From NCBI GenBank assembly GCA_037305845.1, contig CP147778.1:1408001-1472000 (forward strand): DNA of 64,000 nt. The letters are read 5' to 3'. The DNA comes from Candidatus Freyarchaeum deiterrae. GTDB lineage: Archaea > Asgardarchaeota > Jordiarchaeia > Jordiarchaeales > Jordiarchaeaceae. The notes under the pieces were generated by a model. It was not told the DNA's origin. It did no database searches and saw only the letters and a list, made by a program, of their open reading frames with translations. The first letter of the stretch is position 1. Each line of letters opens with the position of its first letter. Positions 18,079 to 45,031 of the stretch are shown in pieces. A program made the translations under genes and the position numbers.

Positions 18079-18291
18079 TGGTGGGGACGGAGAGATTTCC
18101 AAGGAGAAACAGAGTTTCCCATTTTGAACTCCCGACTAACAGGTTTCTTCAGCTCACTGCTCCAGAAGTTCATCATCTTCTGGTCAGCAAACCTGATTAT
18201 TATCATTGCCTCTGGAGCCTGCCGTGCTTCTTAGCCGAGTTCAGAACAACCAAACTATTGTCCCGAACAACTCTGACTACACTACGTCCCC
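18079..18291 (-). tRNA. tRNA-Trp(CCA) with three BHB introns: 18/19 (18272-18231), 37/38 (18211-18145), 59/60 (18122-18096)
   Basis: Acceptor GGGGACG/CGTCCCC-A-CCA; removing the three introns restores D-loop AGTCAGGAA, anticodon stem GCAGG/CCTGT with loop CTCCAGA, and T-loop TTCAAAT. Confidence 0.92.
18145..18211 (-). ncRNA. Intron-encoded box C/D guide sRNA in tRNA-Trp (predicted Cm34 and Cm39)
   Basis: Box C ATGATAA, D' CTGA, C' ATGATGA, D GTGA; guides CAGGTTT and TCTGGAGC are complementary to the host pre-tRNA with D+5 on C39 and C34. Confidence 0.85.
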
Positions 18292-18544
18292 ACCGAAATG
18301 GGTTAGGCAGCAACACACCAAACATGGTGCGTGTAAAAATGATAAGTGCAAGAATTACATAAAGTTTTTGTTTCCCTCCTCTTTTGCCTCTCAAACCCCG
18401 CACACCTAATTTCAGAACACAAAACCATTACAATAAACCATAAAACATCAAACCAGTAAGCAATAAAAAGCCACAAAAATCAAAAAAGTCCAAAAATAAA
18501 CAAACACACAAAACCGCAAAAAAAACACGAAATTAGGAATGCGG

Positions 18545-18689
18545 CGTCGCTGTTCCGTGTTCGGTAAGAGAACGGGTGATCCCCATGCACTATGACCGGC
18601 ACCGAGGCGCCAGCATTCGGTTTTTCCGCTCCCTCGCGGAGAGCAGTACTCACAGAATCGTACATGAGCTTAACTTTCACGCAGCGACG
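18545..18689 (-). other. BHB processing stem flanking the permuted 5S rRNA
   Basis: Outer helix CGTCGCTG (18689-18682)/CAGCGACG (18552-18545), 4-bp helix CGTG/CACG, 3-nt bulges AAA and GAA. Confidence 0.85.
18554..18675 (-). rRNA. rrf: 5S rRNA, circularly permuted gene (3' half 18675-18606, TC linker, 5' half 18603-18554)
   Basis: Helix I GGTGCCGG/CTGGCGCC, helix II GTGCATGGG/CTCATGTAC, loop C CCGAAC, loop E AGTA and GCGA-capped helix IV are all present but in permuted order. Confidence 0.92.
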
Positions 18690-18713
18690 TCTATCTCTCA
18701 CATAACAAACGGA

Positions 18714-18721
18714 AATATAAA
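18714..18721 (-). promoter_or_regulatory. TATA box for permuted 5S precursor
   Basis: AGAAATG-TTTATATT about 25 nt upstream of the start of the processing stem. Confidence 0.65.
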
Positions 18722-18997
18722 CATTTCTAAGCAATAACAAACAATATACACACCCTCAAACTACAGGCATAAACACAAAAACATCATCATAAAAACACGT
18801 TAAATTACAAAGAAAAAAAACAAGTATGGCCGGTTGAAAACAATAATGATATTCTTATGAAAGTAGTAGCCTTGCAGATACAAATACGACTTAATCCACA
18901 CATCCTCCGCAAAAATTAACCAACTAGAGACAGCGTTCAACAAATGAACAGAAAAATTTATATTTTAAAGTTAATTCTAATCAAACACACAGAATGC

Positions 18998-19132
18998 GCC
19001 CAAGTGGTGTAGCCCGGTCTATCATCGCGGCCTGTCACGTCGTGGACACAAAAACGATGGTTTAGTGGCGGGAACCCGAGGCCAAAAAACAAAGGTTTTA
19101 TGGCGGGAATTCAAATCTCGGCTTGGGCGCCA
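18998..19132 (+). tRNA. tRNA-Asp(GTC) with two BHB introns: 45/46 (19046-19073) and 53/54 (19081-19109)
   Basis: Acceptor GCCCAAG/CTTGGGC-G-CCA; anticodon GTC 19034-19036; BHB helices TCGT/GCGG and CCCG/CGGG with 3-nt bulges; upstream TTTATATT at 18957. Confidence 0.92.
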
Positions 19133-19331
19133 ACACTTCTTCTATAAAGCAGTTTCCAATTATTGAGGATTTTTTAGGTTTTCCATTTTTAGATATGAAA
19201 TAGCTCTGCTGTGATTTTTAAAAAAATAATTATGTGATCTATGAATGAGTAGAGGAGGTTAAGCTCGGAACTCAGAAAGGGAAAAAAAATATAAATCTCC
19301 ATAGGCTATCTTAGGATGCTCTGAAAAATGT

Positions 19332-19497
19332 GGGCCGTTAGCTCAGGGGCGCAACGAAACCGTTGAACCGAGAAATTAGGTAGAGCGTCTGACTTCGGTG
19401 GACTTCCCCCCGAAGGGTGAAGCTTTTAACCAGGCGGTCGCGGGAAGCTTCTGAAACTTATCGGGGCTCGCGAATTCAAATCCTGCACGGCCCGCCA
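19332..19497 (+). tRNA. tRNA-Lys(TTT) with three BHB introns: 15/16 (19347-19375), 30/31 (19392-19421), 53/54 (19445-19474)
   Basis: Acceptor GGGCCGT/ACGGCCC-G-CCA; anticodon TTT 19425-19427; splicing restores GCTC-AGTTAGGTA-GAGC, TCTGG/CCAGG and GCGGG-TTCAAAT-CCTGC. Confidence 0.92.
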
Positions 19498-19690
19498 AAA
19501 CTCATTCAGATTTTCTGTATTGAAAATTGAATGTTTTAGGTTGAAAAATTTGAGAGTTGTATGATAGAATAAGAATATAAAGTGCTTTGTTTTAGTTTTT
19601 CATTGTTGTTAGTTTCTTGTAGTCGCGTGGGATGGTTTAAAACAGATTTATAGTTTGTTTGTGATTGGTTGATTCCTAGAAGTGGTTGTT

Positions 19691-22600
19691 ATGTCTAATG
19701 GTGAACAGTTGGATAATTGGCGTATTGTGGAAGCTTTCATCGAGGAAAATGGTCTGGTTCGGCAGCACCTAGATTCTTATGACGAGTTTATTAGACATGG
19801 ACTGCAGCAGGTAGTAGACGAGATTGCAGCCATTGAGCCGGAAGGAGAGAATTACTACGTTAGGCTGGGTAAAATTGAGATAGGGAAGCCTACAGTGAAA
19901 GAGGCTGACGGCTCAACCATGCCGGTTTTTCCCAACGAGGCCCGCATCCGTAACCTGACATATGCCTCAAACCTTCACTTGGAGATGGCTATAGTTTATA
20001 GTGACGAACGGGGAGGAGATACTGAAGAAGCCCCAGTTGAGGTTTACATAGGCAGAATTCCAATCATGTTAAAATCCGAAAAGTGTCCCCTTTCCCAGTT
20101 GAGCAGGGAGGAACTCATAACTCTGGGAGAGGATCCCGATGACCCGGGAGGCTACTTTATTATAAATGGAAGTGAGAGGGTTCTGGTCACTCAGGAAGAC
20201 CTCGCCCCTAACCGTATCCTTATTGAGGAGGCTAATAAGAGCAGTTCATCCACCCACGTTGCTAAAGTTTTTAGCACAGCTCAAGGTTTCCGAGCCCCAG
20301 TAACTATGGAGCGACGACGAGACGGCTCCCTCAGGATTTCTTTCCCCTCGGTTCCCGGAAAGATTCCGCTAGTAGTTTTAATGCGCGCCCTCGGGCTGGA
20401 GAGTGATAAACAGATCGCCGAGGCGATTTCCGATGAGGATGAGATTGTCCGCGAATTAATTCCCTCAATTGAGGCGGCGTCTACAATTATCTCCCGTGAC
20501 GAGTCACTTGACTACGTTGGCAAGCGTGTCGCCGTGGGTCAGACCAGAGACTACCGCCTGAAGAGAGCGGAACAGGTTCTGGACCGGTACCTTCTCCCAC
20601 ACATCGGTACTGACGCTAAGGACCGGTTAAGAAAAGCGTTCTACCTGGGCCAGATGGCTTCGCATATTATTGAGTTGGCTCTCGGCAAGAGAACCGAGGA
20701 TGATAAGGACCATTACGCTAATAAGAGATTGAAGCTCGCCGGTGACCTGCTGATGAGCTTGTTCCGGGTGGCTTTCCTCAGCCTCTGCAGAGACATTAAA
20801 TACCAGCTTGAGAGAAACGCCGTCAGAGGCAGACGGAGAAACATCAAGACTGCAGTTCGTGCAGACGTAATTACAGACCGCTTACATCACGCGCTCGCAA
20901 CAGGAAACTGGGTAGGCGGCAAAGCCGGAGTAAGCCAGCTTCTAGACAGAACCAATTATATGTCCGCCCTCAGCCACCTCAGAAGAGTCGTTTCTCCCTT
21001 GAGCAGAAGCCAGCCTCACTTCGAAGCTCGAGACCTGCACCCCACCCACTGGGGCAAAATCTGCCCTAACGAGACACCAGAAGGACCTAACTGTGGACTA
21101 GTTAAAAACCTAGCGCTCCTAGCTTACATATCCGTAGGCGCAGACGAAAAGGAGATTGAAAGCGTCTTCGTGGATCTAGGTGTGCAACCCATAGAAGAGA
21201 TAAAGAGAGAGAAGGGAGCCAAAGGCGCCCAAGTCTACGTCAACGGTCGACTGATAGGAGTACACATGCAACCTCTAGTCCTCGTAGCGGAAGTAAAGAA
21301 GCGGAGGAGAAGCGGCCAAATAAACAATGAGGTAAACATCGCCTACTACTCCGACACTAACGAGATACAGACCAACTGCGACCAAGGACGAGCAAGACGC
21401 CCCCTAATAATAGTGGAAAACAAGACCACCAAATACACCACAGAACACGCGACAAAACTCAGAAGCAAGGAATGGAAGTTCAGCGACCTAATACGCAGAG
21501 GAATAGTGGAATTCCTAGACGCAGAAGAAGAAGAAAACACCCACATAGCAATGACCCCACCGGACATAAACGAGAAAACCACCCACATAGAAATCGCGCC
21601 CACTTCAATCCTTGGAATATCTGCATCCATAATACCCTACCCCGAACACAACCAAAGCCCAAGAAACACTTATGAAGCTGGAATGGTAAAACAAGCCCTC
21701 GGATTATTCGCAGCCAACTACCGAACAAGAGCAGACACACGCGCCCATCTACTCCACTACCCACAAACCCCAATGGTGAACACAAAATCAACCACACCCA
21801 CAGGATTCGACAAAAGACCTGCAGGACAAAACTTCATAGTAGCAGTAATATCCTACGAAGGATACAACATAGAAGACGCCATAATAATAAACCAAGCCTC
21901 CATACAACGCGGACTAGGAAGATCAACCTTCTTCAGAAGCTACGAAGCTGAAGAAAGGAAATACCCCGGAGGACAAGAAGATAAATTCGAAATACCCGAC
22001 CGCAGCGTCAGAGGATACCGCGCCGCAGAAGCCTACCGCCACCTATCCGACGACGGAATAATCGAACCCGAAGTCGAAGTCCTAGGCGGAGAAATAATAA
22101 TAGGAAGAACAAGCCCCCCAAGATTCCTAGAAGAAAACGCAGGCTTCGAACTACCCACCCAAACCCGAAGAGAAACCTCAACCAGCATGCGACACGGAGA
22201 ACTAGGAACCGTAGACACAGTAAGCGTAACCGAAACCATAGACGGAAACAGACTAGTCAAAGTCAAAATCAGAGACCTAAGAATACCCGAACTAGGCGAT
22301 AAATTCGCAACACGCCACGGACAAAAAGGAATAATCGGACTAATAGTACCCCAAGAAGACCTACCCTTCACAGAAGACGGCGTAGTCCCAGACCTCATAG
22401 TCAACCCACATGCAGTACCATCACGAATGACCATAGGACAAATAATAGAATCCATAGCCGGAAAAGTAGGCGCACTCAGCGGAAGAAGAATAGACGGCAC
22501 AGCGTTCAGCGGCGAACCACTAAAAGACCTATACAAAGAACTGACCAGCAGAGGCTTCAAACACAACGGTAGAGAAGTAATGTACAACGGAATAACCGGA

Positions 22601-23032
22601 AGAAAATACGAAGCAGACATATTCATAGGAGTCGTATACTACCAAAAACTACACCACATGGTATCAGACAAAATCCACGCCAGAGCCAGAGGACCAGTAC
22701 AAATACTAACAAGACAACCGACAGAAGGACGAGCCAGAGAAGGCGGACTCAGATTCGGAGAAATGGAAAGAGACTGCCTCATAGGCCACGGAAGTGCGCT
22801 AATTTTGAAGGAGAAGCTTGTCGATGAGAGTGATAAGACTACTTCTCTTGTTTGTGAGGATTGTGGTATGCTCGCCGTGTACGATAAGAATAAGGGTCGT
22901 TACTATTGTCCGCTTTGTGGTGAGGATATTCGGGTTTCCAAGGTTAACATGAGCTACGCCTTCAAACTGTTGTTGCAGGAGCTTATGGCTTTGGGTATTG
23001 CTCCGCGTCTTAAGCTTGCGGAGAAAACTTGA
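19691..23032 (+). CDS. rpoB: DNA-directed RNA polymerase subunit B (unsplit Rpo2)
   Basis: GGYFIINGSERV, ETPEGPNCGL, GDKFATRHGQKG, QKLHHMV, GGLRFGEMERD. Confidence 0.98.
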   Translation: MSNGEQLDNWRIVEAFIEENGLVRQHLDSYDEFIRHGLQQVVDEIAAIEPEGENYYVRLGKIEIGKPTVKEADGSTMPVFPNEARIRNLTYASNLHLEMAIVYSDERGGDTEEAPVEVYIGRIPIMLKSEKCPLSQLSREELITLGEDPDDPGGYFIINGSERVLVTQEDLAPNRILIEEANKSSSSTHVAKVFSTAQGFRAPVTMERRRDGSLRISFPSVPGKIPLVVLMRALGLESDKQIAEAISDEDEIVRELIPSIEAASTIISRDESLDYVGKRVAVGQTRDYRLKRAEQVLDRYLLPHIGTDAKDRLRKAFYLGQMASHIIELALGKRTEDDKDHYANKRLKLAGDLLMSLFRVAFLSLCRDIKYQLERNAVRGRRRNIKTAVRADVITDRLHHALATGNWVGGKAGVSQLLDRTNYMSALSHLRRVVSPLSRSQPHFEARDLHPTHWGKICPNETPEGPNCGLVKNLALLAYISVGADEKEIESVFVDLGVQPIEEIKREKGAKGAQVYVNGRLIGVHMQPLVLVAEVKKRRRSGQINNEVNIAYYSDTNEIQTNCDQGRARRPLIIVENKTTKYTTEHATKLRSKEWKFSDLIRRGIVEFLDAEEEENTHIAMTPPDINEKTTHIEIAPTSILGISASIIPYPEHNQSPRNTYEAGMVKQALGLFAANYRTRADTRAHLLHYPQTPMVNTKSTTPTGFDKRPAGQNFIVAVISYEGYNIEDAIIINQASIQRGLGRSTFFRSYEAEERKYPGGQEDKFEIPDRSVRGYRAAEAYRHLSDDGIIEPEVEVLGGEIIIGRTSPPRFLEENAGFELPTQTRRETSTSMRHGELGTVDTVSVTETIDGNRLVKVKIRDLRIPELGDKFATRHGQKGIIGLIVPQEDLPFTEDGVVPDLIVNPHAVPSRMTIGQIIESIAGKVGALSGRRIDGTAFSGEPLKDLYKELTSRGFKHNGREVMYNGITGRKYEADIFIGVVYYQKLHHMVSDKIHARARGPVQILTRQPTEGRAREGGLRFGEMERDCLIGHGSALILKEKLVDESDKTTSLVCEDCGMLAVYDKNKGRYYCPLCGEDIRVSKVNMSYAFKLLLQELMALGIAPRLKLAEKT

Positions 23033-23077
23033 GCGAGGGTTTTCTCCTATAAAAAAATTTTAATTTATTTTTCTTAT

Positions 23078-23512
23078 TTAGCCGAATTGGTCGGTTATCA
23101 TTAGGTCTTTCATTTTTTCTATTTCGGGTAGTTGGTCGACTTTTTTTTGTTTGAAGAGGGAGTAGCTTTCCATGTTTTTGCTTTTTACCATTGCTATGAT
23201 GTCGTAGACTCCGCTTGTGCAGATGTACACTTTGATGACTTCTGGGTATTTGGCTATTTTTTTTGCAGTTTCTTGTGTTTTTTGGTGGTTGGTTTCGATT
23301 AAAAGTATTGCTAGTATATCGTAGCCTAGTTTTCTCCAGTCTATGGATATTGTGAATTTTTTGATTGTTTCTAGGTCTAGTAGTTTTTTTATTCTGTTTG
23401 TAACTGTACCAGCGCTTACTCCGGTTTTTAGTGATATTTCTTTCACTTGTGAGCGAGAGTCATTCTCTAGTATGTCTAGGATTTTTCGGTCTAGTTTGTC
23501 GAGGATTTTCAA
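23078..23512 (-). CDS. Lrp/AsnC transcriptional regulator
   Basis: LDKLDRKIL..L..DSR, HTH, SGVYDI. Confidence 0.9.
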   Translation of the reverse strand: MKILDKLDRKILDILENDSRSQVKEISLKTGVSAGTVTNRIKKLLDLETIKKFTISIDWRKLGYDILAILLIETNHQKTQETAKKIAKYPEVIKVYICTSGVYDIIAMVKSKNMESYSLFKQKKVDQLPEIEKMKDLMITDQFG

Positions 23513-23710
23513 GGCTTGGCCCCTCGGTTTGATTAACCAAGAATGGTTAAAGGAAGGATATAAGTATGCTGGTAATTTTTTTAATGAAATTTTTCGAAAG
23601 CGTAAAAAATATGTTTAATTATTATAGAGAAACGAAAATCGGATTAAATTGAAGTTGGGTAAGTTAGAAATGTGGTTTTTTTGGGATTTGAATTATGATG
23701 TGGTGGAGTG

Positions 23711-24127
23711 TTAGAGTAGCTTGTTGATCAGGCCTTTCTCGATAGCGGGGGAATAGTTATTTTTTTGGGTGGTCAACACTCCTTCAGCTTTCTTTAAACT
23801 TGTGACTGAAAGGACGAAGGCTTCTTCCACACCGACGGAATATGAGTTCATGATTTGTCCTGCGTCGGTAGCGATTCCTATATCGCATACTACTATGATT
23901 ACATTCAGGGTTTGCCTTAAAACTGCGAGCATTAAATCTATGTACTCGCCTTTTCCCTCTTGGAGGCTTTTTGAAGCAAAAAAGGCGATGGAAATCGTGG
24001 AGACGAAGATTCGATTCCCCTCAGCTTTTGCTTTTCCCCAAATTTCAGTGGTTTCTTCGTTTCCCTCAATAAGGCTTAAGAGGAAGGACGAATCCGCAAC
24101 AAGAATCAAGTTAATATCACCCAACAA
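23711..24127 (-). CDS. PIN-domain-like protein (degenerate)
   Basis: LVADSSFLLSL and S.ISI.. PIN-like pattern; later acidic residues appear absent. Confidence 0.6.
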   Translation of the reverse strand: MLGDINLILVADSSFLLSLIEGNEETTEIWGKAKAEGNRIFVSTISIAFFASKSLQEGKGEYIDLMLAVLRQTLNVIIVVCDIGIATDAGQIMNSYSVGVEEAFVLSVTSLKKAEGVLTTQKNNYSPAIEKGLINKLL

Positions 24128-24286
24128 CTCGTACTGTCGAAGATTGCAGTCGGCTGAACATTAATTATAACTCATTAACTGAAAAACAATAAAAACATTG
24201 CTACGGAAACAGAAAATAGTTGGAAAACTTGTGTGTTTCTCAATAAAAAAGGCGTAATTATGAGTGGGGCAAAACAGAGAAGTGTG

Positions 24287-25039
24287 TTATAAGTTGTCTC
24301 CGCAGCTGCAGAAGATTTCGTGGAGGAGGTCGAAGAGTTCTTCATATCCTTCTCGGTTTATTATTGATGTTGCGATTACTCTCACGGAGGGGTGTACTTT
24401 TTTTATGATTTTGAGCGCGTCTAGTGCTAGATCCGTGATTACTCCTCTCTGCTCCATGGTGGTTATTTTCTCTCTGAGCAATTCGGGGTCGTTGAGCATT
24501 TCTATAAACTCTTTGGACTTCAGCATGTCTGATTTGTGCAGGACAGTTATCAGACTAACCCCTAGTTGAATCTGGATGGCTATGCTCATTAGAAGAGCAA
24601 CGACGAATCCGGTGGTGGTGGGGGAGGTGTCTGCGCCTAGTAAGAAGATTCCGCATACCCGCATATCGCGAAGTTTTTCCATGAACAGGCTTCCGGTAGG
24701 TTTGAACGCAAAGACTTCTAACTGGCCCGGGGTATCAATTAATACGTAGTCAGCTTCGGTTTTTTTCATCCGTTCTATGATTTGATCTGACGACTCGTAT
24801 ATCATTTGGCTGGCTCTTATTATGGAGGCATTCGGACCTATGTGCTCTTTTTTCATTATTTCTGAAACTCGAAAAAAGTTCCTTATATCGAAATCCGGAA
24901 CGTAGGGCAGATACTCTGCCCCGGCGTCTAGATTAAAAAATTTTACTTTGTAACCTTTTTCGGCTAGGAACCCGCCGAAGCTTCCTGCCAGTGAGGTCTT
25001 TCCTGATCCCGCTGGTCCCAAAAAGGGAATTGCGAACAT
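24287..25039 (-). CDS. GPN-loop GTPase
   Basis: GPAGSGKT, NLDAG, IGPNAS, DTPGQLE, C-terminal CSCGD. Confidence 0.92.
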   Translation of the reverse strand: MFAIPFLGPAGSGKTSLAGSFGGFLAEKGYKVKFFNLDAGAEYLPYVPDFDIRNFFRVSEIMKKEHIGPNASIIRASQMIYESSDQIIERMKKTEADYVLIDTPGQLEVFAFKPTGSLFMEKLRDMRVCGIFLLGADTSPTTTGFVVALLMSIAIQIQLGVSLITVLHKSDMLKSKEFIEMLNDPELLREKITTMEQRGVITDLALDALKIIKKVHPSVRVIATSIINREGYEELFDLLHEIFCSCGDNL

Positions 25040-25266
25040 TTGTATTATCCCTACCTATCAATTTAAAATGAGAATTTAAAAATTAATTTTTATTTAGACG
25101 CGTGGTAATTTTGTTACTTTTTATACACTATGATTGGAGTATTGAAGAATTTTTAATCTTTTTTCTGAGATTTACTGTTAAGAATTGAAAAATCGTTTGT
25201 GTCAGTAATAAAACATGTGTCATATGGTGGAAATAACTAAAAAGAGAGGTTTATGAGTGGTTCCGC

Positions 25267-25548
25267 TTAAGCTAATTTTATTTCGGTTCCAATAGCTTGT
25301 CCTGGTAGACCGTGTTTGAAGTGGGCGCTTACTACGCCGTTTTTACCGTGAATCTTCGTGATTTTTCCTCTCATCTCTTTCCCTGAAGTGGTTTTCCATA
25401 TTACTGTTTTACCAATAAATTTGGCGGCTTCTTTGTCAGAATCGATTCCCTGTATCTTGATTAGCATGTATTTGTTTCTTTGGGTTCGTATTCCGTGGAC
25501 GTAATTTAAGATGGAACATTTTCTTCCGATAACTGTCTTGTCAGACAT
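25267..25548 (-). CDS. rpl35ae: 50S ribosomal protein L35Ae (eL33)
   Basis: GKITKIHGKNGVV.A.F..GLPGQAIG. Confidence 0.93.
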   Translation of the reverse strand: MSDKTVIGRKCSILNYVHGIRTQRNKYMLIKIQGIDSDKEAAKFIGKTVIWKTTSGKEMRGKITKIHGKNGVVSAHFKHGLPGQAIGTEIKLA

Positions 25549-25816
25549 TTTTAGCACCTTCACACGATGGTTTCTAGGGTAAATTAGCAGCGTCCTCTAA
25601 AAAGGATTATGGTTAATTCTGTACATGCGTCACATAAATATGTATTATTTTTTGAATTAGAATTTTTAAATATTTGGTTTGAGTTACAATCAAAATTAAA
25701 ACAAGTGGCAAATCGGTAATCATAGTTTATTTTTGCTTTGAGTTAGTGTATTTGCGAAACATTTAATACCATGTTTATGTTAATGGTGGAATACTATTGT
25801 AAGGTGGTTTGGATTT

Positions 25817-25880
25817 GGTGATGCCCTGCCAATATCTAATGACTGGACTTGGATGTGGTGGTTCGGTGATGCCCTGCCAA
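25817..25880 (+). repeat. 16-bp direct repeat GGTGATGCCCTGCCAA x2 in the asd leader
   Basis: Identical copies at 25817-25832 and 25865-25880 (48-nt period). Confidence 0.85.
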
Positions 25881-26050
25881 ACATGCTTTTAAGTCTACAC
25901 CATATTGCTTTTTTTAGTTTGAATTCGATTTTCAGAGAGTGCAAAATTAAAATGCTGCTTTTAGAGGGAATGAACTGTGAATGCAGATGAGGGTATAGTA
26001 GTTAAATTTGGAGTTTGTGTCTGAATTAAAAAGAAACTGGAGGTTAAAGA

Positions 26051-27127
26051 TTGAAGAAGATAGACGTGTCAATTTTGGGTTGCACCGGTACGGTCGGTCA
26101 AAGATTAATAGAGATGCTTTCTAACCATCCCTGGTTCAACATTGTCTCTATCGCGGCTTCGGAGAGATCATCTGGTAAAACTTACAGAGATGCTGCGGTA
26201 AACTGGTATTTGCCAGAGGATATTCCTAAAGATTTGGGAGATATGATGGTGGTTAATACTGATCCAAGTGAGGCCGCAGCTCCTCTTGTTATTTCTGCTC
26301 TGCCTTCGGATGTAGCTAAAGACGTGGAAAGGAAATTCGCTGAGTCGGGTTGTGTGGTTGAGAGTAAGGCTAGTGCCTATAGGATGGAAAAGGACGTCCC
26401 CCTGATTATCCCTGAGGTAAACCCGGATCATGTTAAACTATTAGACGTTCAAAAAGAGAATCGGGAATGGGACGGATGCATAGTTACCGATCCCAATTGT
26501 ACGGCTATGGGTTTGATTATGGTTCTCAAGCCCATTCACGACCGTTTCAAACTTGATACAGTATACGTAAGCACGATGCAAGCTATTTCTGGAGCGGGTC
26601 TTCCCGGTGTACCCGGACTACTGATCACTGATAACGTGATACCGTTCATTAAAGACGAAGAGCAAAAAGTGATGAATGAAACTCGTAAAGTTTTAGGCAA
26701 AATTGAGAATAAGCAGGTTAAGTTAGCAGATTTCAAAATAGCGGCTTCATGTAACAGAGTCCCAGTGGTTGAGGGACACACTGAAACCGTTTTCATTAAA
26801 ACCAAAGAACCCGCGAACGTTGAAGAAGTTAAAAAATTGCTCAGAGAGTTTAAAGGCGAACCCGCAAAACTGGGTTTACCTAATGCGCCCAAAAACCCGA
26901 TAATAGTTAGAGATGAAATAGATAGACCTCAGCCACGTTTAGACCGTGATGCAGGCACTGTTCCAGGGATGAGCGTGACTGTTGGAAGAATAAGACCGGG
27001 TTTCGACGAGAATTCATTACTCTTGACGCTTGTTAGTCACAATACCATTAGAGGCGCGGCGGGAAACGCGGTGCTTAACGCGGAACTCCTTTACGCGAAA
27101 AATCTTCTGGGAGGCTCAAGAAATTGA
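26051..27127 (+). CDS. asd: Aspartate-semialdehyde dehydrogenase
   Basis: [44 protein letters not shown]. Confidence 0.95.
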
Positions 27128-27906: not shown

Positions 27907-27908
27907 CA

Positions 27909-28991: not shown

Positions 28992-29040
28992 AAGTTGACT
29001 AAAGGTAAAGAGTTACCCAGATCTTTTAAGTTAAGAGTTA

Positions 29041-29529: not shown

Positions 29530-29583
29530 TAATCTTTAATTAATAGGAGAAGAGGGAGTATTTTGAAGCGTGTTGAGAGATTT

Positions 29584-32054: not shown

Positions 32055-32127
32055 AAAGTCCTATTTTAAAGAAAGAGTTCATAGTTTCAAACGATTCCTT
32101 ACTCGCTTCTTTTTGAAGCTTTTTTGA

Positions 32128-33024: not shown

Positions 33025-33068
33025 TTTTATCCCTCTTCTAAATTAGCCACATTTCGTAATTCATGACT

Positions 33069-35950: not shown

Positions 35951-35953
35951 TCT

Positions 35954-36817
35954 CTAGATTACTTTGGCCTTTTCGTTATTAAATTCGGTGCGAATAATTT
36001 CTCCTCCTAATGCACTCCAAGAAGCTTCGATATCACCACAGATATCCCTTGGACATAGAGCAATCGTTGCCGGACCCTTACCTGTTAATCCAGCCGAAAC
36101 CGCTCCCATTTCAAGAGCCCTAACTGTAGCTTCAGTATCAAACCCCAGGGCTGCGGAGTAAATCAGACCGTTAAGGGTAATTGCGGTCTTATAGTTCCCG
36201 TTTTGCGCTATGTCAAAAACATGTTCTACATAATTTTTCATGGCTTTTATTCTTTTAACGTTACTCTCTATTGTGAGGTATTTCTTTACGGGTACATGAA
36301 TAATTACCGCAAGGTCTTCTTCAATCTGTTGTCTTCTAAGTAATATTCTTTTCGAATTATTGGTGAGCACAAATCCTCCAAAATATGATGCACAAGCATC
36401 ATCAAAAGCTCCAGTAATGGTCACTCTCGCTTCTAACGCTGCATCAACACCTAAGCCAATGATGTTTAAATCATCTAAATCTTCTTTCAGAGCTGCAACA
36501 GTAGCTAAAGCTACCGCGTTCGCCGCAACACTGCTGCTCTTAAGCCCCCTGGAAATTGGAATAATGGAATCAGTTATTATCCTTGCACCGTATTCTTGGC
36601 CTAGTCCAAAGTGATTCAGAACATGTCTCACAGTGGCGCGGATTAGTTCAGTATTCTCAGATGGATCATTTAGAATCTTTCCCTCAAAAAATCCTGATTC
36701 ATCCAAAAGATTTACTTCAGCTTTTGTCCAAAGAGCAAGCCCAAAAGCAGCGCCCAAACCGGTTGCAATTGCGTTCACAACTGTTCCAGCGCCGAAAGCC
36801 AAAGCCTTACCTTTCAA
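35954..36817 (-). CDS. aroK: Archaeal (GHMP) shikimate kinase
   Basis: VVNAIATG.GAA, GLKSSS, TITGAFDDA, LTGKGP. Confidence 0.95.
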   Translation of the reverse strand: MKGKALAFGAGTVVNAIATGLGAAFGLALWTKAEVNLLDESGFFEGKILNDPSENTELIRATVRHVLNHFGLGQEYGARIITDSIIPISRGLKSSSVAANAVALATVAALKEDLDDLNIIGLGVDAALEARVTITGAFDDACASYFGGFVLTNNSKRILLRRQQIEEDLAVIIHVPVKKYLTIESNVKRIKAMKNYVEHVFDIAQNGNYKTAITLNGLIYSAALGFDTEATVRALEMGAVSAGLTGKGPATIALCPRDICGDIEASWSALGGEIIRTEFNNEKAKVI

Positions 36818-36820
36818 CTC

Positions 36821-37675
36821 TTAATCCCTTCCAACCAAGCCTTCAACAACCGCTTTTCTCATAATATCTTTAGGAGCCTCGCATCCAGTCCACATTTTAA
36901 AACTAATTGCGCCTTGATTAACTAGCATACCAACGCCATTAATGGCTTTTGCACCAACACTCCGAGCGTACTTTAGAAGCGAGGTTTCTAAAGGATTGTA
37001 AACAATATCGAAAACTACCAAATTTTTGTGTAAAAACTCTTTGGGAACAGGTGACTCAGTAACATTTGGGTGCATTCCTACCGAAGTCGTGTTAATAAGT
37101 ATATCAGAATCATTCAAAGAGTTCTCCAATGATTTGAGTGCTAAGCTTTTTCCCTCAACTTTGGAGCCCACATTTGTTAATTCTCTAGCCAAATTCACAG
37201 CCCTAATCCTTGTACGATTCAAGATGATCAATTTTGAGCAAATGCTGGCGAGTTGGAAAGTGATTGCTCGAGATGCACCACCAGCTCCTATAACTACTAT
37301 TTTCTTATCTTCCGGGTTTACTCCCTCTTCTCTCAAAGTTTCCAGAGCCCCTAATCCATCGGTATTGTAACCTAATAGTTTCCCCTCCTCATTAACCACG
37401 GTATTAACCGCCCCTATTTTTCTAGTGGTAAGATCAACATCGTCTAGAAATTTAATTATTGAAACCTTATGTGGAATGGTTACATTAAAACCTTTTAAAT
37501 TGAAGGCTCTAGCTCCCTTAACAGCGTTTTTTAAATCTTTTTCCGAGACCCTGAAGGGGAGATAGAGGTAATCAAGATCCAAGTACTCAAATGCAGCGTT
37601 GTGCATTCTTGGGGATAACGAATGTTCAATAGGATCACCAATCACACCCACAACTTTGGTAGCTCCGCTGACCAC
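36821..37675 (-). CDS. aroE: Shikimate dehydrogenase
   Basis: HSLSP.MHN, NVTIPHK, GAVNT, NTDG, GAGGA. Confidence 0.96.
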   Translation of the reverse strand: MVSGATKVVGVIGDPIEHSLSPRMHNAAFEYLDLDYLYLPFRVSEKDLKNAVKGARAFNLKGFNVTIPHKVSIIKFLDDVDLTTRKIGAVNTVVNEEGKLLGYNTDGLGALETLREEGVNPEDKKIVVIGAGGASRAITFQLASICSKLIILNRTRIRAVNLARELTNVGSKVEGKSLALKSLENSLNDSDILINTTSVGMHPNVTESPVPKEFLHKNLVVFDIVYNPLETSLLKYARSVGAKAINGVGMLVNQGAISFKMWTGCEAPKDIMRKAVVEGLVGRD

Positions 37676-37720
37676 TCACGAACCTCCGAATTGTCTCTAA
37701 ACTTCTAAAAACGTAGTTAG

Positions 37721-38422
37721 TTAAACCTTTTTTTCTATGAGAGAAAAGAGAAGCGTGTGTATTTTTCTCATAACTTCTAAATCAATTTGGCCCGGTGCAG
37801 TAATTGTCTCTAACGCAGCGTAGGTTAAATAAGAGCCGAAAAATGGGCATAAAACCCTAGAGATTATGCCCCTTTCTCCCATGCAAAAGGAGATGATCTT
37901 AATCCTCAAATCATGGGCCTGTTGAGGAAGTGAAAGTAAAACTAAATTATCGTTTATATCATTGGCGAAAGTAATAAGTTTTACCAATTCTGCTCCTTTT
38001 TGGTGCGCTTCGCGGATTTTCTGTACGAGTATTTCACTTCGGGGGGTATTTTTAAATGAGTGAAAAGAAAGAATAACTTCTACTGAATTCTGCTTCGCGA
38101 GTTTTAGTAATCGTTTTAGATTAGAACTGCTCATATTTAACTCCAAGTCTACAAATCTCGGTTTGGCTTCGATGCATTTTTCTAATAGCTCAATTCTTTT
38201 TTTCTCTTCGAGTTCAAAGAAACCCCCTTCATCTTTTTTCCTTGCCGTTAATATCAGGGGAATTGATGTTTTAGAAACAATATCTGAAAAATCAATATTC
38301 ATGTCTTCAAGATAGTCTACTCTGATTTCAATAAAATCTGGGCTGCTTTTCATCGCTGATTTGACTTTTTCAAGTAACATTTCCGGATTTTTAACGGCTA
38401 CAGGAACACATATCAAAGCCAC
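37721..38422 (-). CDS. aroD: 3-dehydroquinate dehydratase type I
   Basis: EIRVD, T.R...EGG, SFH.F..TP, MG..G..SR, APGQ. Confidence 0.95.
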   Translation of the reverse strand: MALICVPVAVKNPEMLLEKVKSAMKSSPDFIEIRVDYLEDMNIDFSDIVSKTSIPLILTARKKDEGGFFELEEKKRIELLEKCIEAKPRFVDLELNMSSSNLKRLLKLAKQNSVEVILSFHSFKNTPRSEILVQKIREAHQKGAELVKLITFANDINDNLVLLSLPQQAHDLRIKIISFCMGERGIISRVLCPFFGSYLTYAALETITAPGQIDLEVMRKIHTLLFSLIEKKV

Positions 38423-38616
38423 TTAAGTTGCACCAACTCTGCTTACGGTCTCTGAACTAAGAGAGGCATTTATATTATTCAATCTATCCACCCAGTCTAA
38501 AAAACTTGAAAATACAATATTTGGAATGCCTTTCAGAGGCTCTTTCCCCAAAATCAGGCATTGGGTTTGTTTTCAAAAATAGTTTTTATTCTAAAGTTTA
38601 GACCTAAATGCGGTAT

Positions 38617-38796
38617 TTAAGCGTATACATGTTCTCGCTTTACAGCCGGATTGAATTCTGAATATTCTTCCTTCTGTAAAAGGTCTCGAATAGCGAATCT
38701 TATTGCTTCACGTAGGTTTGCGTAAAACCCTTTTTCCACTAATAAATTCAAGTCATCTACGTATTCTTTGGGAAGTTTAACAGAAACCGGTTTCAT
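38617..38796 (-). CDS. 59-aa ribbon-helix-helix (CopG/CdrS-like) regulator (not in ORF track)
   Basis: MKPVSVKLPKEYVDDLNLLVEKGFYANLREAIRFAIRDLL... Confidence 0.82.
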   Translation of the reverse strand: MKPVSVKLPKEYVDDLNLLVEKGFYANLREAIRFAIRDLLQKEEYSEFNPAVKREHVYA

Positions 38797-39014
38797 ATGT
38801 AATTATAAATCAAAACTAATATAAAAAACGTTTTATCTAAAAATTTTGATGAAATACTTCAAAAAAATAGAATCTGGCAGTATTAAAAGAGGAAAACAGC
38901 GGACATGTAAAAAAAGGAAAAAAATTTAGAGATAAAGCTACTTTACAAGATTAAAAAATTTTTATTAATGATTATGGCCATTAAACAAAGCTTAGTCATC
39001 TATCGGTGATAGGT

Positions 39015-39293
39015 ATGAAAGTTAGAGCCCATGTATTTGTCAGCGGAAGAGTGCAAGGTGTTTACTTCAGACAGCATACTAAAGATGAGGCGGATAGAGT
39101 AGGAGTAAATGGATGGGTCAGAAACCTTAGCGATGGAAGGGTAGAAGCTTTAATTGAGGGAGAGAAAGAGAAAGTTGAAGAAATGGTTCAGATCTGTAGA
39201 AGAGGACCGCCGTCTGCACAAGTTACTGATATAAACGTTGCCTTCGAAAACTACACTGGCGAATTCAAAAATTTCAGTATAAGGTACCGATAA
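39015..39293 (+). CDS. acyP: Acylphosphatase
   Basis: SGRVQGVYFR, GWVRNLSDGRVE, GPP.A.V. Confidence 0.95.
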   Translation: MKVRAHVFVSGRVQGVYFRQHTKDEADRVGVNGWVRNLSDGRVEALIEGEKEKVEEMVQICRRGPPSAQVTDINVAFENYTGEFKNFSIRYR

Positions 39294-39737
39294 AAATAAA
39301 TTTATTTATTAAATAAAACCAAATCGCTTTTCATTAAGCTAAATAATGTTTTTTTGAGACTTGAGGATAGCATGGGAGGGGAGAGGAGCCAGGAAAACTC
39401 TAAAAATAGAAGGGGTGGATGCGGTTCACACAACCCTGGCTCCTGAATAAACCCTGAACCAAACTCGTTGGAGGGGATACAATTAATATCCAAAGTCGAC
39501 TTAAAAACTCCACTACGCGTAAAGTGTAATTATAAAATTCTTTAGCTTTCATTACACATGACACAGGCTATAGACCAAACAACAACTTCTTAATTATAGA
39601 AATGCATAAAAATTAGGCTTCAAAGTCTTAGATTACTGATAATACATCAAAAACTATAAGTTAGTTGTAATCAATTTAACAATTTCAATGAGAATTTACC
39701 ACTTCTAAAAATGGAATAAAAATTACAAAAATGGGTA

Positions 39738-40205
39738 GTGAGTAAAATGGGAGAATCTGAAAATGAGAATAAAGGCGAGTTCTTTGGAGGAGAACTCTTG
39801 AACTTTTTAGAAAAAAATGAGCAAAAAGTCATCGAATACTTGGATAACATAGCTCAGGAAAGTAAAGTTGTAAGAAGCAGTATACTAAAATTCATTTGCC
39901 ATAGGAAACCCGAATTGGGGCAACGTTTAATACAACACCTTATCCAAAAACATCAAGAAAAACTGGAAATAATTTATATTCACGACGGTATAGAAGAAAT
40001 TTTCACCAAAAACCCTAAACTATTCTTCGACTTAGTAGAGGAACATATAGATAGCCCGACTAAATGGAGACAAAAACTAGTAACAGATCTGCTGGAAATA
40101 ATATCGGAAACTGTGTTAAAGTTTGACAAGGAAATAGAAGAAAAAGAAAGGAAGGAAACCTTATCTGGACTTACCAAGATGATAAACTTGTTAGGATTAC
40201 GATAA
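39738..40205 (+). CDS. Hypothetical helical protein
   Basis: 155-aa ORF, no recognised motif. Confidence 0.65.
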   Translation: MSKMGESENENKGEFFGGELLNFLEKNEQKVIEYLDNIAQESKVVRSSILKFICHRKPELGQRLIQHLIQKHQEKLEIIYIHDGIEEIFTKNPKLFFDLVEEHIDSPTKWRQKLVTDLLEIISETVLKFDKEIEEKERKETLSGLTKMINLLGLR

Positions 40206-40444
40206 TGATTCTTGGGAAATCAGCTTATGAAAATAAAGTGATTTTACAACATGTTAGGGTACATTTGTTTTATCTTTTTATACATAGATAATGTTTAAAT
40301 ATTAAAAATATTTTATATAGTCTAGGCTGGGCTAACGTGGTGAGGTGAACTATTACCTAGATCGTAGTATGGGTCTCAGTTTCTAGGAATAGGGATTGAA
40401 TCAAATCAAATAGCCTTCATTCATTAAACGTATAATATTATGGT

Positions 40445-41329
40445 ATGGGTGGTGTTGTATTGAAAACATTTAGCGCCAGAAAGGAAGCTATTGAGAGAAA
40501 TGTTTTAGAAAAGAGAGATGAGTTGCCTTTTACTGCTCTTGAAGACGATAAACTTCTCGGGAGGCATAGGGTAAAGGTTAACGTTTCTTGGGAAAACGAC
40601 ATTAGGGGTAAGAATAAATTAAACTTTTTTAAGGGGTTCCCGGCCAAGCTTTACATCACCGAGTCACGCTTAATCATTAGTTCTGAATTTTATTCACAGG
40701 ATAAAGTTTCTAGATTTGTAGGGCGCATACCTATAGGCTGGATGAGATATAACACAGTATACGTTGAATTAGCCATTAATAAAATTAAGAAAGCCTCCTT
40801 CACAATTTTTGGAAGTTATATAGAGTTAGATCCTCATGGGAATGTGGGCGAGACTAAAATAAACTTTTATAATCTCTCAAGAGGGGAAAGGAGACTGATT
40901 AAGGAGGATTTGGACACAGCTAGAGTTTTTAAAAGAACAGCCCCTGAATCAGGGATAGTGATTTTAGATAGGCCTATTGCAGACGCAGTAACACAGCGTT
41001 TTGCGATGCTACGCCACGAAGCTATAGTTTCAAAACCAACTTCCAAGAAACCTGAAGTGAAGAAAGCTACGAAGGTTCCAATTAAAAGAGTAAGTATGAA
41101 AGAGAATGCTGATGCCGGTACTGCGGTAGAACCCGTGCAAAGTGGTATCGAAGAAGTTAAAGAAAATGCAGAGAAGCCAAGTCTGCTCTTAGAGAACAAG
41201 CTTGAAAAAACCCCACAGGAACGCGTATTGATGACACTTCAAGCGCAGGTAACAAAATGCAGATTTTGTGGACAAGAGATACTGAGAAGTGCCAAAAAAT
41301 GTCCTAGATGTGGAGCAATCAACCTGTAA
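40445..41329 (+). CDS. Hypothetical protein: possible PH/GRAM-like domain, low-complexity linker, C-terminal zinc ribbon
   Basis: KLYITESRLII motif; C-terminal CRFCG..CPRCG. Confidence 0.72.
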   Translation: MGGVVLKTFSARKEAIERNVLEKRDELPFTALEDDKLLGRHRVKVNVSWENDIRGKNKLNFFKGFPAKLYITESRLIISSEFYSQDKVSRFVGRIPIGWMRYNTVYVELAINKIKKASFTIFGSYIELDPHGNVGETKINFYNLSRGERRLIKEDLDTARVFKRTAPESGIVILDRPIADAVTQRFAMLRHEAIVSKPTSKKPEVKKATKVPIKRVSMKENADAGTAVEPVQSGIEEVKENAEKPSLLLENKLEKTPQERVLMTLQAQVTKCRFCGQEILRSAKKCPRCGAINL

Positions 41330-41387
41330 AAGCTTAAATCTTCACCCAATTGTTGGAAGTATATTTAAACCCTTTATTATTCTTTAC

Positions 41388-42557
41388 TCATAAACTAGAT
41401 TGGGGTTGAGCCGGGGTTAATGTTATTTTCTGTTTTTCTTTTGAGATCATCTCATCGGGGAGAAGTTCGTTGTCTTTATAGACCTTGAAGTCAATGTAAC
41501 ACTCTTTGGTTTCAGAGACTTGAGGAGTGTCCCAATTTATCGCACCGTACATTCTCTGCTCTCCCTTTTGCTGGTTAAGTTGAAGTGTTTTTAGCTTGTT
41601 TTCACTATTTTCGTCTACTATTAGGACATCAACTCTTAGTTTTGTTGGTTCAACGCTCTGGAGAATTTTCACATTAAAGTTCACCTTTTCTCCTCCGGTA
41701 ATCGAAATTGGAATTTTGGGAGATTCATTTATTCTTATTTTTACAATCGGCTCGGATGATAGTTGAACCACTATTTTTAGAGCTGTGCACTGTTCGCGTT
41801 CTTGTTCTTCTTGTTTGAACTTAACGCGGGCCACTACGAAACATTCTCCTAGACTGTTTATGGGGATTATGCTTCTTGCCTGAATCGCTTCAGGCCTTCC
41901 CGGGGGAATATTTCGGGGCTCGCTGAATATCTTGATCTCTTCCCCTCCTAATGGTATAAGCAAAACCTCTACGTTAAGTGAAATCGGTTTTTCCGAGTTA
42001 TTTTTTAAATCGCAGAAATAGTCCTGTCTGTCTCCCGCAATAATTCTTTCTCCTTTAATGTGAGGGTCGGACAATTCAAGCATGTTCTTGTTACGCGAAA
42101 TAGGTACGGTAGTCTTTTTTTCCGATACAGCTGTTTTACCTACTTGTAATCCTACTCTTAGACTAACTGATTTAGCTTCGGGTGGAATTTTATTAATCTC
42201 CAGAGGTAAGGGGATGAGATATTTCCCATCGCGGGAAACACTCTGGTCGAGCGTCACCTTCTTGAAAACATTTTTCTTAGAGGCAAGTTCCACTTTAAAA
42301 CGAAGATCAGTAGGATTAGGTATCTTATCTACCTTCAGCCCGATGTATGGTGCAATTTTTAATTTCTCAGCTAAGGGAGGAGAAATGTTAGTAATACCAC
42401 CCAATTTAAATATTTTTTTCAAGTTCTTTTCCGTTTTCAAACAAAATTCCCCCGAGTTAACATGTTGAATGAGTTTCATACATAAAAAGATTCTGATTTG
42501 AGCTAAAACGCGGCTTGAATATGGCGATAATCTATCTATAACAGAGTAACTCCCCAT
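41388..42557 (-). CDS. Hypothetical beta-rich protein
   Basis: 389-aa ORF with alternating strand-like patterns; start uncertain. Confidence 0.68.
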   Translation of the reverse strand: MGSYSVIDRLSPYSSRVLAQIRIFLCMKLIQHVNSGEFCLKTEKNLKKIFKLGGITNISPPLAEKLKIAPYIGLKVDKIPNPTDLRFKVELASKKNVFKKVTLDQSVSRDGKYLIPLPLEINKIPPEAKSVSLRVGLQVGKTAVSEKKTTVPISRNKNMLELSDPHIKGERIIAGDRQDYFCDLKNNSEKPISLNVEVLLIPLGGEEIKIFSEPRNIPPGRPEAIQARSIIPINSLGECFVVARVKFKQEEQEREQCTALKIVVQLSSEPIVKIRINESPKIPISITGGEKVNFNVKILQSVEPTKLRVDVLIVDENSENKLKTLQLNQQKGEQRMYGAINWDTPQVSETKECYIDFKVYKDNELLPDEMISKEKQKITLTPAQPQSSL

Positions 42558-42722
42558 ATTCTAGTTGTAGTAGTTTTATAACCGTTAATTAGCTAAAGAT
42601 AACACAACCTTGCGGGCTCATCTTTAAATAATATATGGTAGAATCTTATATATGCTTCCTTCGGGAAGAAGAATTAATTAGGCAAATTTATTTCTCTATT
42701 AGGAAGTAATGGAGGAAACAAA

Positions 42723-43208
42723 ATGTCAGAAACCGAACGACCAAAATTAGCAAATCTAGTATCTGTAATTTTTATAATCGCAGCCATAGGCATAATACTA
42801 CTGGGGTACATTTTCTTCCTCAAACCACTATCGTCCGGACCATCAACGAGCTCTTTTTCATCGTTCTCATTTTTACTCGGGACGCCTGAAGGTATTCTCA
42901 CGTTTTTCTCAGGGATATACATTCCAAAGGTACTTTCGATACAAATGAGTGCAAGTAACTATACTTTAATGTACGTATTCGTCATAATATTGGCAGTTAT
43001 ATTAGTTGTTTCAGCTTTCGGATTCGCTTACAGAAAGAAATGGGGATACTATCTTGCCATCATCAGCTCAATTATCCTAATCGCAACTCCATTTCTCGGA
43101 TACATACTAGGTTTTCCAATTATCTACATTGTAGGCGGCGTGGTTCTTCTTGTACTAGGAATAATCTTCATTCTGTATCTAAGAGGGGATGTAAAGAAAG
43201 AATTCTAG
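42723..43208 (+). CDS. Hypothetical membrane protein
   Basis: About four hydrophobic segments, GGAGG SD, C-terminal LRGDVKKEF. Confidence 0.75.
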   Translation: MSETERPKLANLVSVIFIIAAIGIILLGYIFFLKPLSSGPSTSSFSSFSFLLGTPEGILTFFSGIYIPKVLSIQMSASNYTLMYVFVIILAVILVVSAFGFAYRKKWGYYLAIISSIILIATPFLGYILGFPIIYIVGGVVLLVLGIIFILYLRGDVKKEF

Positions 43209-43544
43209 TGAAAAGACTCAGTTAATAAATCTCAGAGAAAGAAGCATTAAAAATAGACATTGCTAATATCTTAATCACCCTCTATTTTTATTTATAAACC
43301 ATTAAAACCGAACGAGAAATTAATAGGACATATGATCTGCCCATAAAATAAGTCACGTATAATAGTTAAAGGAGTAATGTATAAAAATTAAAAGACATCA
43401 GCTTGTTCCCTAGATTATTTTTCTAAAAATTATATCTGTAAATCAAATCCTCAAAAAAATAGAGTAAGAGGGCTTCCACCACACAAGCTATCCCAAAACG
43501 TCCTAAACTTGTTCTAAATAGAAAGCTCTACCTAATTGGGAATA

Positions 43545-45031
43545 TTACCCCTTTACAACACCAAGAGGACGCAAACGTGCAACCATAGACGCTATCCCCG
43601 CATCATGCGAAGCTTGCACCACTTCATCAACATTCTTGTAAGCCTCTGGGGCTTCCTCACTCACAACTTGAGCACTAGCCGCCCTAACAAAAATCCCCTT
43701 CGACAAGAGTTTGCTTTTCACACCCTCACCTGAAAAGCTCTTAATCGCCTGAGTCCTACTCATCACACGGCCGGCACCATGTGCGGTGGAGCCGAAACTA
43801 AGCTCCATTGCTTCTTTTCGTCCTCTAAGTATGTAGCTGGCGGTTCCCATGGTTCCAGGTATTATCACCGGCTGACCTATGCTTCTATATTTTTGTGGAA
43901 CTTCTGGATGGTCTGGCGGAAAGGCGCGTGTGGCTCCTTTTCTGTGTACATAAACAGAGTGAGTCTCACCGTTAACCTTGTGCTTTTCTATCTTTGCTAT
44001 GTTATGCGCCACATCGTAAATCAGATGCATATCAAGATCTTCAGCTGACCTTCCAAATACGTTTTGAAAGGATTCTCGTATCCAGTGTGTTATACTCTGT
44101 CTATTTGCCCAGGCGAAATTCGCGGAGGCAGCCATAGCCGCTAAGTAGTCTTGTCCCTCAGGACTGTTTCCAGGAGCGGCTGCTAGTTCTCTATCGGGTA
44201 AATTAATTCCGTATTTTCTTGAGGCGTTTTCCATGATTCGTAGATAGTCAGAGCAGACTTGATGTCCTAGACCCCGTGAACCCGTGTGAACCATTACGGT
44301 AACCTGATTCTCACTTAATCCTAAGACCTTGGCTGCGTCTTGATCAAAAATTTTCTCTACGTATTGAATCTCGAGAAAATGATTACCTGCCCCTAATGTT
44401 CCCACTTGGGCAACCCCTCTCTCCTTTGCTTTGCTTGACACTTTTGAAGTGTTCGCTCCCTCCAATTTTCCATTCGCTTCGCAGTTTAAAGCGTCCTCTT
44501 CCCATCCGAAACCGTTTTTAATAGACCAGCTAACGCCCTCGGAAAGAATTCCGTCCAAGTCTCTAGCTGAGAGTTTAATTTTTCTCTTAGATCCCAAACC
44601 ACTAGGCACATTATCAAACATTTCTTTTGTTAACTCTTTTATCTTGGATTCAGCGTCCTTCCTCTCAAGATTGGTTTTAATCACTCTAACACCGCAATTG
44701 ATATCATACCCAACCCCGCCGGGACTTACAACTCCGTTGTCCTCAATATCAGTAGCGGCTACTCCGCCTATTGGAAAACCGTAGCCCTGATGAGCTTCCC
44801 TCAGTAGAGGACATCCTCTCCTGAATCGGGCAGGGTTACGGAGAATTTTTTTATGCCTGGCAGGCTGCATACGTTAACGGCTTGGATTAGAGTTTGATCC
44901 TTATAAATATCTTTAAGCAATACCTCGTTTGCAATAATTCTGGCTGGAACCCTCATGTAGGGTCGATAATCTTTAGGAATCTCCCAAATGTTTTTATTAA
45001 TCTGCTTAAGAGGAATATTTCTTGTACTCAA
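43545..45031 (-). CDS. rtcB: RNA-splicing ligase RtcB, join(45031-44825,44795-43545), about 485 aa after intron removal
   Basis: Exon 1 ends ..NVCSLPGI...TLPD; exon 2 begins [11 protein letters not shown] and holds [49 protein letters not shown]; GAGGTGA SD before TTG 45031. Confidence 0.92.
44796..44824 (-). other. 29-nt BHB-type mRNA intron in rtcB
   Basis: TCAGGAGAGGATGTCCTCTACTGAGGGAA; exact removal gives PD^AHQGYG; helix CCCG/AGGG, bulges AT^T and AA^G, internal hairpin CAG..AGAGG-ATGT-CCTCT..CTG. Confidence 0.85.

Follow-up and report, generated by a model that had tools for sequence, protein, structure and literature searches.

Bulge-helix-bulge introns in rtcB and other genes of Candidatus Freyarchaeum deiterrae: self-dependence of the RNA ligase as a probable by-product of intron invasion

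Why should the gene for an RNA-splicing ligase be interrupted by an intron that appears to need this very ligase for its removal? The question is raised by a stretch of 64,000 nucleotides (nt) from Candidatus Freyarchaeum deiterrae (contig CP147778.1, positions 1,408,001 to 1,472,000), here referred to as the window, which is part of a single-contig genome of 3,576,204 bases. The ligase gene, rtcB, is broken by a short insert and shares the window with a rearranged 5S rRNA gene and three tRNA genes. A sequence-only reading had proposed that tRNA, 5S rRNA and the rtcB mRNA all require cleavage at bulge-helix-bulge (BHB) motifs as well as ligation, and that the tRNA endonuclease EndA and RtcB in this way form a circuit that gates translation. 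The BHB motifs were confirmed in all three RNA classes, their anatomy at each site supports a dependence on EndA and RtcB, and the observation is larger than first stated; less firm are the need of 5S rRNA for ligation, which we deduce, and the sharing of one window, which is mere proximity. We think it likely that these features reflect a lineage-wide invasion by BHB micro-introns, with the self-dependence of rtcB being a by-product and not a selected circuit.

The rtcB gene lies on the minus strand. Alignment to RtcB homologues delimits an exon 1 of 69 codons with a TTG start (44825..45031) and an exon 2 of 416 codons (43545..44795), and the 29-nt intron between them (44796..44824), recognized by its BHB fold and by comparison with relatives, brings in both a frameshift and an in-frame stop. 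Exon 1 ends in the codon that matches Asp65 of Pyrococcus horikoshii RtcB, which we take to be a catalytic residue, and the insert follows directly. It folds into a central helix CCCG/AGGG with one G-A mismatch, bulges AUU and AAG and an inner hairpin; cutting at the BHB sites gives a 485-amino-acid RtcB that shares 287 identities over 480 columns with the Thermococcus kodakarensis protein and has all active-site motifs. The gene is single copy in the genome, and no ATP-dependent ligase of the Lig_C type was found there. Inserts of 29 to 30 nt with variable sequence are present in all six genomes of the genus and at further metagenome loci; in the five other genus genomes the insert is 30 nt long, contains a stop and occupies the same site, and throughout, the frame is disrupted by a stop or a shift. 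A frameshift plus a stop in the raw sequence could also mean that rtcB is a pseudogene or misassembled. Independent assemblies share the insert site and keep all motifs intact, which, with the lack of another rtcB while many RNAs need a ligase, leaves this explanation next to no chance, and we regard it as refuted by conservation.

What is conserved across the variable inserts is the central helix, the bulges and the inner stem. The helix reads CCCG/CGGG at 6 of 10 aligned loci and CCCG/AGGG (three pairs plus G-A) at the other four, including the present genome, and the bulges follow the patterns AYN and AWG. Overall, 88% of the alignment cells pair, and the covariation score of 0.148 was reached by 1 of 500 shuffles, a figure that derives from related sequences and is not to be taken as a probability. 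The inner helix is 81% paired, the adjoining outer helix comprises just 1 to 2 bp, and at a distance of 8 nt an exon-exon helix of 5 bp shows C-G/U-A covariation; the motif is thus a relaxed one. An alternative register with an intron of 31 to 32 nt was rejected, as it does not restore the frame and disagrees with the junction of an intron-less contig described below.

In most clade members, gene callers return two proteins of 70 and 418 or 419 amino acids, and many inserts hold a stop, GAGG and ATG or GTG in that order. It is therefore conceivable that no splicing takes place and that RtcB is made as two chains of 70 and 418 amino acids, through the stop and re-initiation at a purine run and an ATG or GTG near the insert end. 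We consider this very improbable: several loci have CTG or CCG in place of the start codon, which is thus not conserved, the TG is explained by pairing with an invariant CA, the break falls inside an active-site motif, and a precisely intron-less 485-amino-acid form exists. Database representatives with more than 84% identity to the rtcB product are exon-2-only proteins, with full-length ones starting at 70%, and a pattern scan of JGI that allowed for spliced or unspliced rtcB returned intron-containing copies only. Two short RtcB proteins from other lineages were traced not to introns but to a contig edge and a single-base frameshift.

The full 485-amino-acid protein was found as one member of a database cluster, and its contig stems from run SRR28530379. 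Compared over 4,161 nt, this contig differs from one of SRR28530383 solely by the 29-nt intron; the junction lies exactly at the predicted cuts, and the sequence has the same G-A variant as the present genome. For kae1, a contig from SRR28530378 lacks precisely the 27-nt intron that is present in SRR28530382 and SRR28530383 and is otherwise identical over 12,572 nt. Because the alternative would be two precise losses in unlinked genes of one strain, these contigs, which come from one related strain, are probably RNA-derived assemblies, that is, spliced RNA. Should they instead be DNA of a sub-population with precise intron loss, splicing would be implied and not directly seen; the intron-less contigs do extend over intergenic DNA, and their ends coincide with those of the intron-containing contigs. 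We hold this to be quite improbable, as two unlinked genes would both have had to lose an intron precisely while 16.7 kb of sequence stayed otherwise identical, and the runs separate cleanly, with 378, 379 and one more being intron-less and 382 and 383 being intron-bearing. Taken together with the single rtcB gene and the Lig_C ligase not found, the precise intron-less form in a public run supports the earlier claim that RtcB depends on itself.

Is rtcB exceptional in carrying such an intron? The sequence-only reading had suspected that other frameshifted genes hide BHB introns, and the genome-wide check bore this out: at least 14 protein genes including rtcB, over half of them metabolic or repair genes, are intron bearing in the present genome, as are the signal recognition particle (SRP) RNA and RNase P RNA. 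A genome scan for BHBs that are short and restore the frame gave 15 at a score of at least 7, versus 1 to 3 in each of five altered-geometry controls; the score combined bulge bases, inner stem and short length, and introns of more than 36 nt stayed at control level. With loose BHB filters and energy-constrained folding, the genome scan showed no enrichment over controls. Introns were verified against intact orthologues for kae1, ahcY (three introns), fbp, selD, hypD and alba. The kae1 intron occupies the same site in the host family (f1), its sister family in the same order (f2) and family f3; one of the ahcY introns is common to f2 and one to f13, and those of selD, hypD and alba are common to f2. 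The family profile runs through the junction in selD and pcm, and for gatE, endoQ, an HD protein, a flavin oxidoreductase, porA and tyrS the profiles fit both halves or the expected restart point. No full-length Freyarchaeum-type database representative was found for ahcY, and for fbp the spliced form was not seen among the 15 of 27 cluster members listed. A high-scoring BHB at C1:2568255 was set aside as probably false, since the frame downstream encodes an HtrA protease that has a start of its own.

The two structural RNAs carry their BHB inserts within conserved cores, in both f1 and f2. In the SRP RNA, a 32-nt intron sits at the tip of helix 8 (G000 C1:1689733-1689764, minus strand; L278) and measures 31 nt in G005 and 24 nt in G006; in RNase P RNA, a 23-nt intron lies within the conserved CAGAAAC motif (G000 C1:1698728-1698750, plus strand; L280) and measures 19 nt in G006. 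Both are absent in the outgroups G011 and G021. With regard to the enzymes, both EndA subunit genes are present, and the catalytic subunit has an N-terminal loop insert that presumably resembles the broad-specificity loop. The genes for EndA alpha, EndA beta and archease are uninterrupted.

Further mRNA introns are likely in G000 at C1:1715664 (moaE), 2174686 (a RuBisCO-like gene) and 2434719, all on the minus strand, where motif restoration is the sole support. The ahcY mRNA at L136 (G000) has introns of 56, 29 and 191 nt, all with perfect central helices, and the 191-nt intron could carry a guide RNA or other cargo. In kae1 of f2 (L181-L185), minimal introns of about 13 to 14 nt with a 2-bp inner stem are found at the same site as the 27- to 29-nt introns of f1, and kae1 of G004 (L189) is broken a second time, over about 122 nt, by what resembles a tandem duplication and not a BHB intron.

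The second element is the 5S rRNA gene, which is circularly permuted. Together with its flanking BHB arms, it was delimited by gene layout and BHB to 18545..18691 on the minus strand; Rfam missed it (17 bits), and it is the only 5S-like locus found in the genome. The gene order is 3' part, a short loop linking the native ends, and 5' part. The BHB is canonical (central CGUG/CACG, bulges AAA/GAA, outer arm of at least 8 bp), and when the ends of the excised 122-nt unit (18554-18675) are joined, the conserved CCGAACACGGA-AGUUAAG motif after loop C is restored. A closed 5S ring is predicted from this gene layout. That ligation is required is a presumption, as a nicked 5S molecule might fold. The permuted form occurs in f1, f2, f3, f4, f5, f6, f8, f9, f13, f14, f15 and f17, with differing arm sequences and, in most of these families, a perfect central helix; f7, f10, f12 and f16 have a normal, unpermuted gene. 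At L049 (G021) and L050 (G031) the 5' BHB half-site is doubled, with the copies about 30 nt apart, and the outer copy pairs with the trailer arm, which suggests two-step processing.

The closest known relative of this arrangement is the SRP RNA of Thermoproteus tenax, which is permuted and circular (PMC4731332). In both, the halves are swapped, the new termini lie within a conserved loop, leader and trailer form the BHB, and the lineage is rich in tRNA introns; here, however, the permuted RNA is 5S rRNA and the ring is predicted from the gene, and the SRP RNA of the present genome, unlike that of T. tenax, is unpermuted with a simple intron in helix 8. Processing of archaeal pre-16S and pre-23S rRNA by EndA and RtcB is already known, and 5S rRNA has been stated not to be processed in this way in the cultures studied (PMC12918454); the predicted extension to 5S is what differs here. 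The 16S gene of the present genome has the usual canonical BHB processing stem, and a simple scan revealed no convincing micro-introns in 16S or 23S rRNA and no clear 23S stem. The 16S, 23S and 5S genes are unlinked (G000 C1 about 1.805 Mb and 1.837-1.840 Mb), and several universal rRNA motifs have no exact match in G000, consistent with divergent rRNA.

For the tRNA genes, ARAGORN called none in the raw window, and Rfam was likewise blind to the three genes near 18-19.5 kb. When eight BHB introns (three, two and three, respectively) were taken out at canonical cuts, ARAGORN returned perfect tRNA-Trp(CCA), tRNA-Asp(GUC) and tRNA-Lys(UUU). The tRNA-Trp gene (18079..18291, minus strand) has intron 1 in the D loop (18231..18272, 42 nt), intron 2 at 37/38 (18145..18211, 67 nt) and intron 3 in the T loop (18096..18122, 27 nt). 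Intron 2 holds a box C/D sRNA that matches Rfam sR3 (E 7e-6, slightly under the gathering score) and whose guides pair with its own pre-tRNA, with Cm34 and position 39 as predicted targets. On the plus strand lie the tRNA-Asp gene (18998..19132; introns 19046-19073 and 19081-19109) and the tRNA-Lys gene (19332..19497; introns 19347-19375, 19392-19421 and 19445-19474). This is the same trait as the multi-intron tRNAs published for Freyarchaeia and Atabeyarchaeia, where 92-95% of tRNA genes are intron bearing; the main text of that study uses "intron" for tRNAs alone and makes no mention of "5S rRNA" or "frameshift" (PMC11291895). A weak Rfam C/D-box match (E 3.3) at 14237-14330 (plus strand), antisense to a coding gene, is probably due to chance.

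Do the three traits travel together, as the components of a co-evolved circuit would? They do not co-occur across relatives, and the comparison of rtcB intron, permuted 5S and tRNA intron load that the sequence-only reading had put forward largely speaks against a linked circuit: the traits are nested or independent, not co-distributed. Clean tRNA matches, taken as an indicator of a low intron load, amount to 5 to 7 in f1, 2 to 8 in f2 and 12 in f13, versus 26 to 38 in f3, f5, f6 and f8, so that the load is heavy in f1, f2 and probably f13. As f3, f5, f6 and f8 have permuted 5S at a low load, the 5S permutation is independent of tRNA load. The rtcB intron at the Asp65-equivalent site was seen in f1 only, among the 150 of 332 matches listed from a search over 301 genomes, with rtcB intron counts being lower bounds. 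Because f2 has an intact rtcB although it combines permuted 5S with a heavy tRNA-intron load and with introns in mRNAs, SRP RNA and RNase P RNA, the rtcB intron would be a late single gain nested inside older traits or, less simply, would have been lost in f2. A single event is statistically untestable, and the splicing system plainly works without the rtcB intron. In the window, 26 kb and about 20 unrelated genes separate 5S from rtcB, and in relatives with long contigs the distance is 160-540 kb (the f1 contigs being too short for this comparison). For a point placed at random in the intron-rich part of the genome, the chance that an intron-bearing gene of any kind is no more than 27 kb away is 43%, and for rtcB alone it is 1.5-3%; the nearness of 5S, tRNAs and rtcB is weak evidence for a circuit.

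The rtcB intron could nonetheless have been tuned as a sensor, matching the supply of ligase to EndA activity or to the splicing load and gating translation in an XBP1-like way along with tRNA and 5S processing. Consistent with this, there is a single ligase gene, the intron is kept in every clade member examined, its BHB is suboptimal (a score of 7.3, where several other introns reach 9-11), f9 has an independent second rtcB intron, and a negative-regulator role has been proposed for the cbf5 intron (PMC2738675). EndA cuts first, so that more EndA would give more RtcB, a plausible feed-forward match. Such a selected circuit seems to us unlikely, given that its components do not co-occur and that 5S and rtcB are far apart in relatives, that the genes for EndA and archease are uninterrupted, that most intron-bearing genes lie outside translation, and that the fbp intron has a helix about as imperfect as that of rtcB. 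A toy model, its parameters chosen arbitrarily, shows no homeostasis: as competing load rises, the steady-state ligase level drops and collapses to zero. It is unlikely, too, that the rtcB intron is a selected condition-responsive switch, in which low EndA/RtcB capacity would stop RtcB, tRNA, 5S, SRP, RNase P and dozens of housekeeping mRNAs as a dormancy-type gate; if true, this would make it, in logic, an archaeal forerunner of eukaryotic RtcB-dependent regulated mRNA splicing.

In XBP1 and HAC1, a short frame-changing intron is removed by a protein nuclease, IRE1, which is stress activated and reads stem-loops; XBP1 is joined by RtcB, and the product is a transcription factor. The rtcB mRNA resembles XBP1 in its short frame-changing intron, predicted protein nuclease cut and RtcB join, and to this extent the likeness drawn by the earlier reading holds. 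In contrast, its motif is a BHB, its nuclease the tRNA endonuclease and its product a housekeeping ligase, and no regulated sensor nuclease or signal was found. The cut sites are tRNA-like BHBs and not the stem-loops of a dedicated, signal-activated nuclease, with IRE1-like genes not having been searched for, and the likeness appears chemical, without membership in that class.

We therefore return to micro-intron invasion as the better explanation. BHB micro-introns of 13 to 35 nt, occasionally longer, would have invaded the Jordarchaeia lineage, settling in those motifs of tRNAs, mRNAs, SRP RNA and RNase P RNA that are most conserved. In each bulge, a two-subunit, broad-specificity EndA would cut behind the second base; RtcB, together with archease, would join the ends and probably circularize excised pieces, including 5S. 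The 5S rearrangement would be older and separate, with the same enzymes cutting out the 122-nt unit and probably closing it into a ring. The rtcB intron would be one late, family-specific member of the invasion, persisting since only precise loss is tolerated at a catalytic codon. New RtcB would then depend on existing RtcB, giving an obligatory positive loop and a shared bottleneck; the loop is positive because the rtcB message needs RtcB. As modeled, it would amplify instead of buffer, a real vulnerability that could have been co-opted as a switch.

Other insertions in rtcB fit this explanation. Two f9 genomes (L251 in G143 and L262 in G083) have a second, unrelated 29-nt BHB intron at GVGY|DINCG, which is patchy within the family, and several other Asgard families have inteins at DIN|C, as might be expected for conserved-site targeting. 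The ahcY gene has as many intron sites as rtcB or more. Since inteins lack RNA feedback logic and ahcY has three sites, persistence at conserved sites suffices. Several points weigh against our interpretation. The rtcB BHB is imperfect, with a G-A mismatch in about half of the loci and a weak adjacent outer helix; the scoring of the genome scan was tuned on known examples, which inflates the enrichment; the intron-less contigs, unusually for RNA, take in intergenic DNA and genes that diverge, and the library type of the SRR285303xx runs is unverified, the RNA origin of these contigs being our inference. Moreover, BHB introns entered rtcB on two or more occasions in Asgard, an outcome that feedback selection could also yield, and a lack of regulation is not demonstrable from sequence.

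In the literature found, archaeal mRNA splicing is documented for one coding gene, cbf5 (PMC2738675, PMC7714728), the only other entry being a Haloferax 5' UTR intron (PMC7714728). The cbf5 pre-mRNA of Sulfolobales and Desulfurococcales encodes an enzyme that acts on RNA and, similar to rtcB, is interrupted at the catalytic Asp codon by a short BHB intron (PMC2738675); this intron is cut by EndA and has been proposed to be regulatory, the same two ideas that are raised here for rtcB. Unlike cbf5, rtcB encodes the splicing ligase itself and is one of many interrupted protein genes. Literature searches on rtcB autoregulation, Asgard mRNA introns and permuted archaeal 5S rRNA returned nothing on point. 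The closest known kinds are thus the cbf5 intron and the permuted SRP RNA; the tRNA trait is already published, and the rtcB intron, the SRP RNA intron and permuted 5S are unreported in the literature searched. Protein-catalyzed cut-and-join splicing appears to be routine in these relatives of eukaryotes, for numerous essential mRNAs as well as for all major classes of structural RNA, and this explains broken or missing rtcB, kae1, gatE, tyrS, selD and 5S rRNA in Asgard annotations. The question of splicing before the spliceosome becomes directly testable with existing metatranscriptomes, and RtcB ligating its own message is a clean, testable self-dependence, regulated or not.

Elsewhere in the window, a 586-amino-acid open reading frame (4188-5948, minus strand), read by eye, has a Rab-like small GTPase N terminus that is apparently fused to a peptidase- or deacylase-like region.

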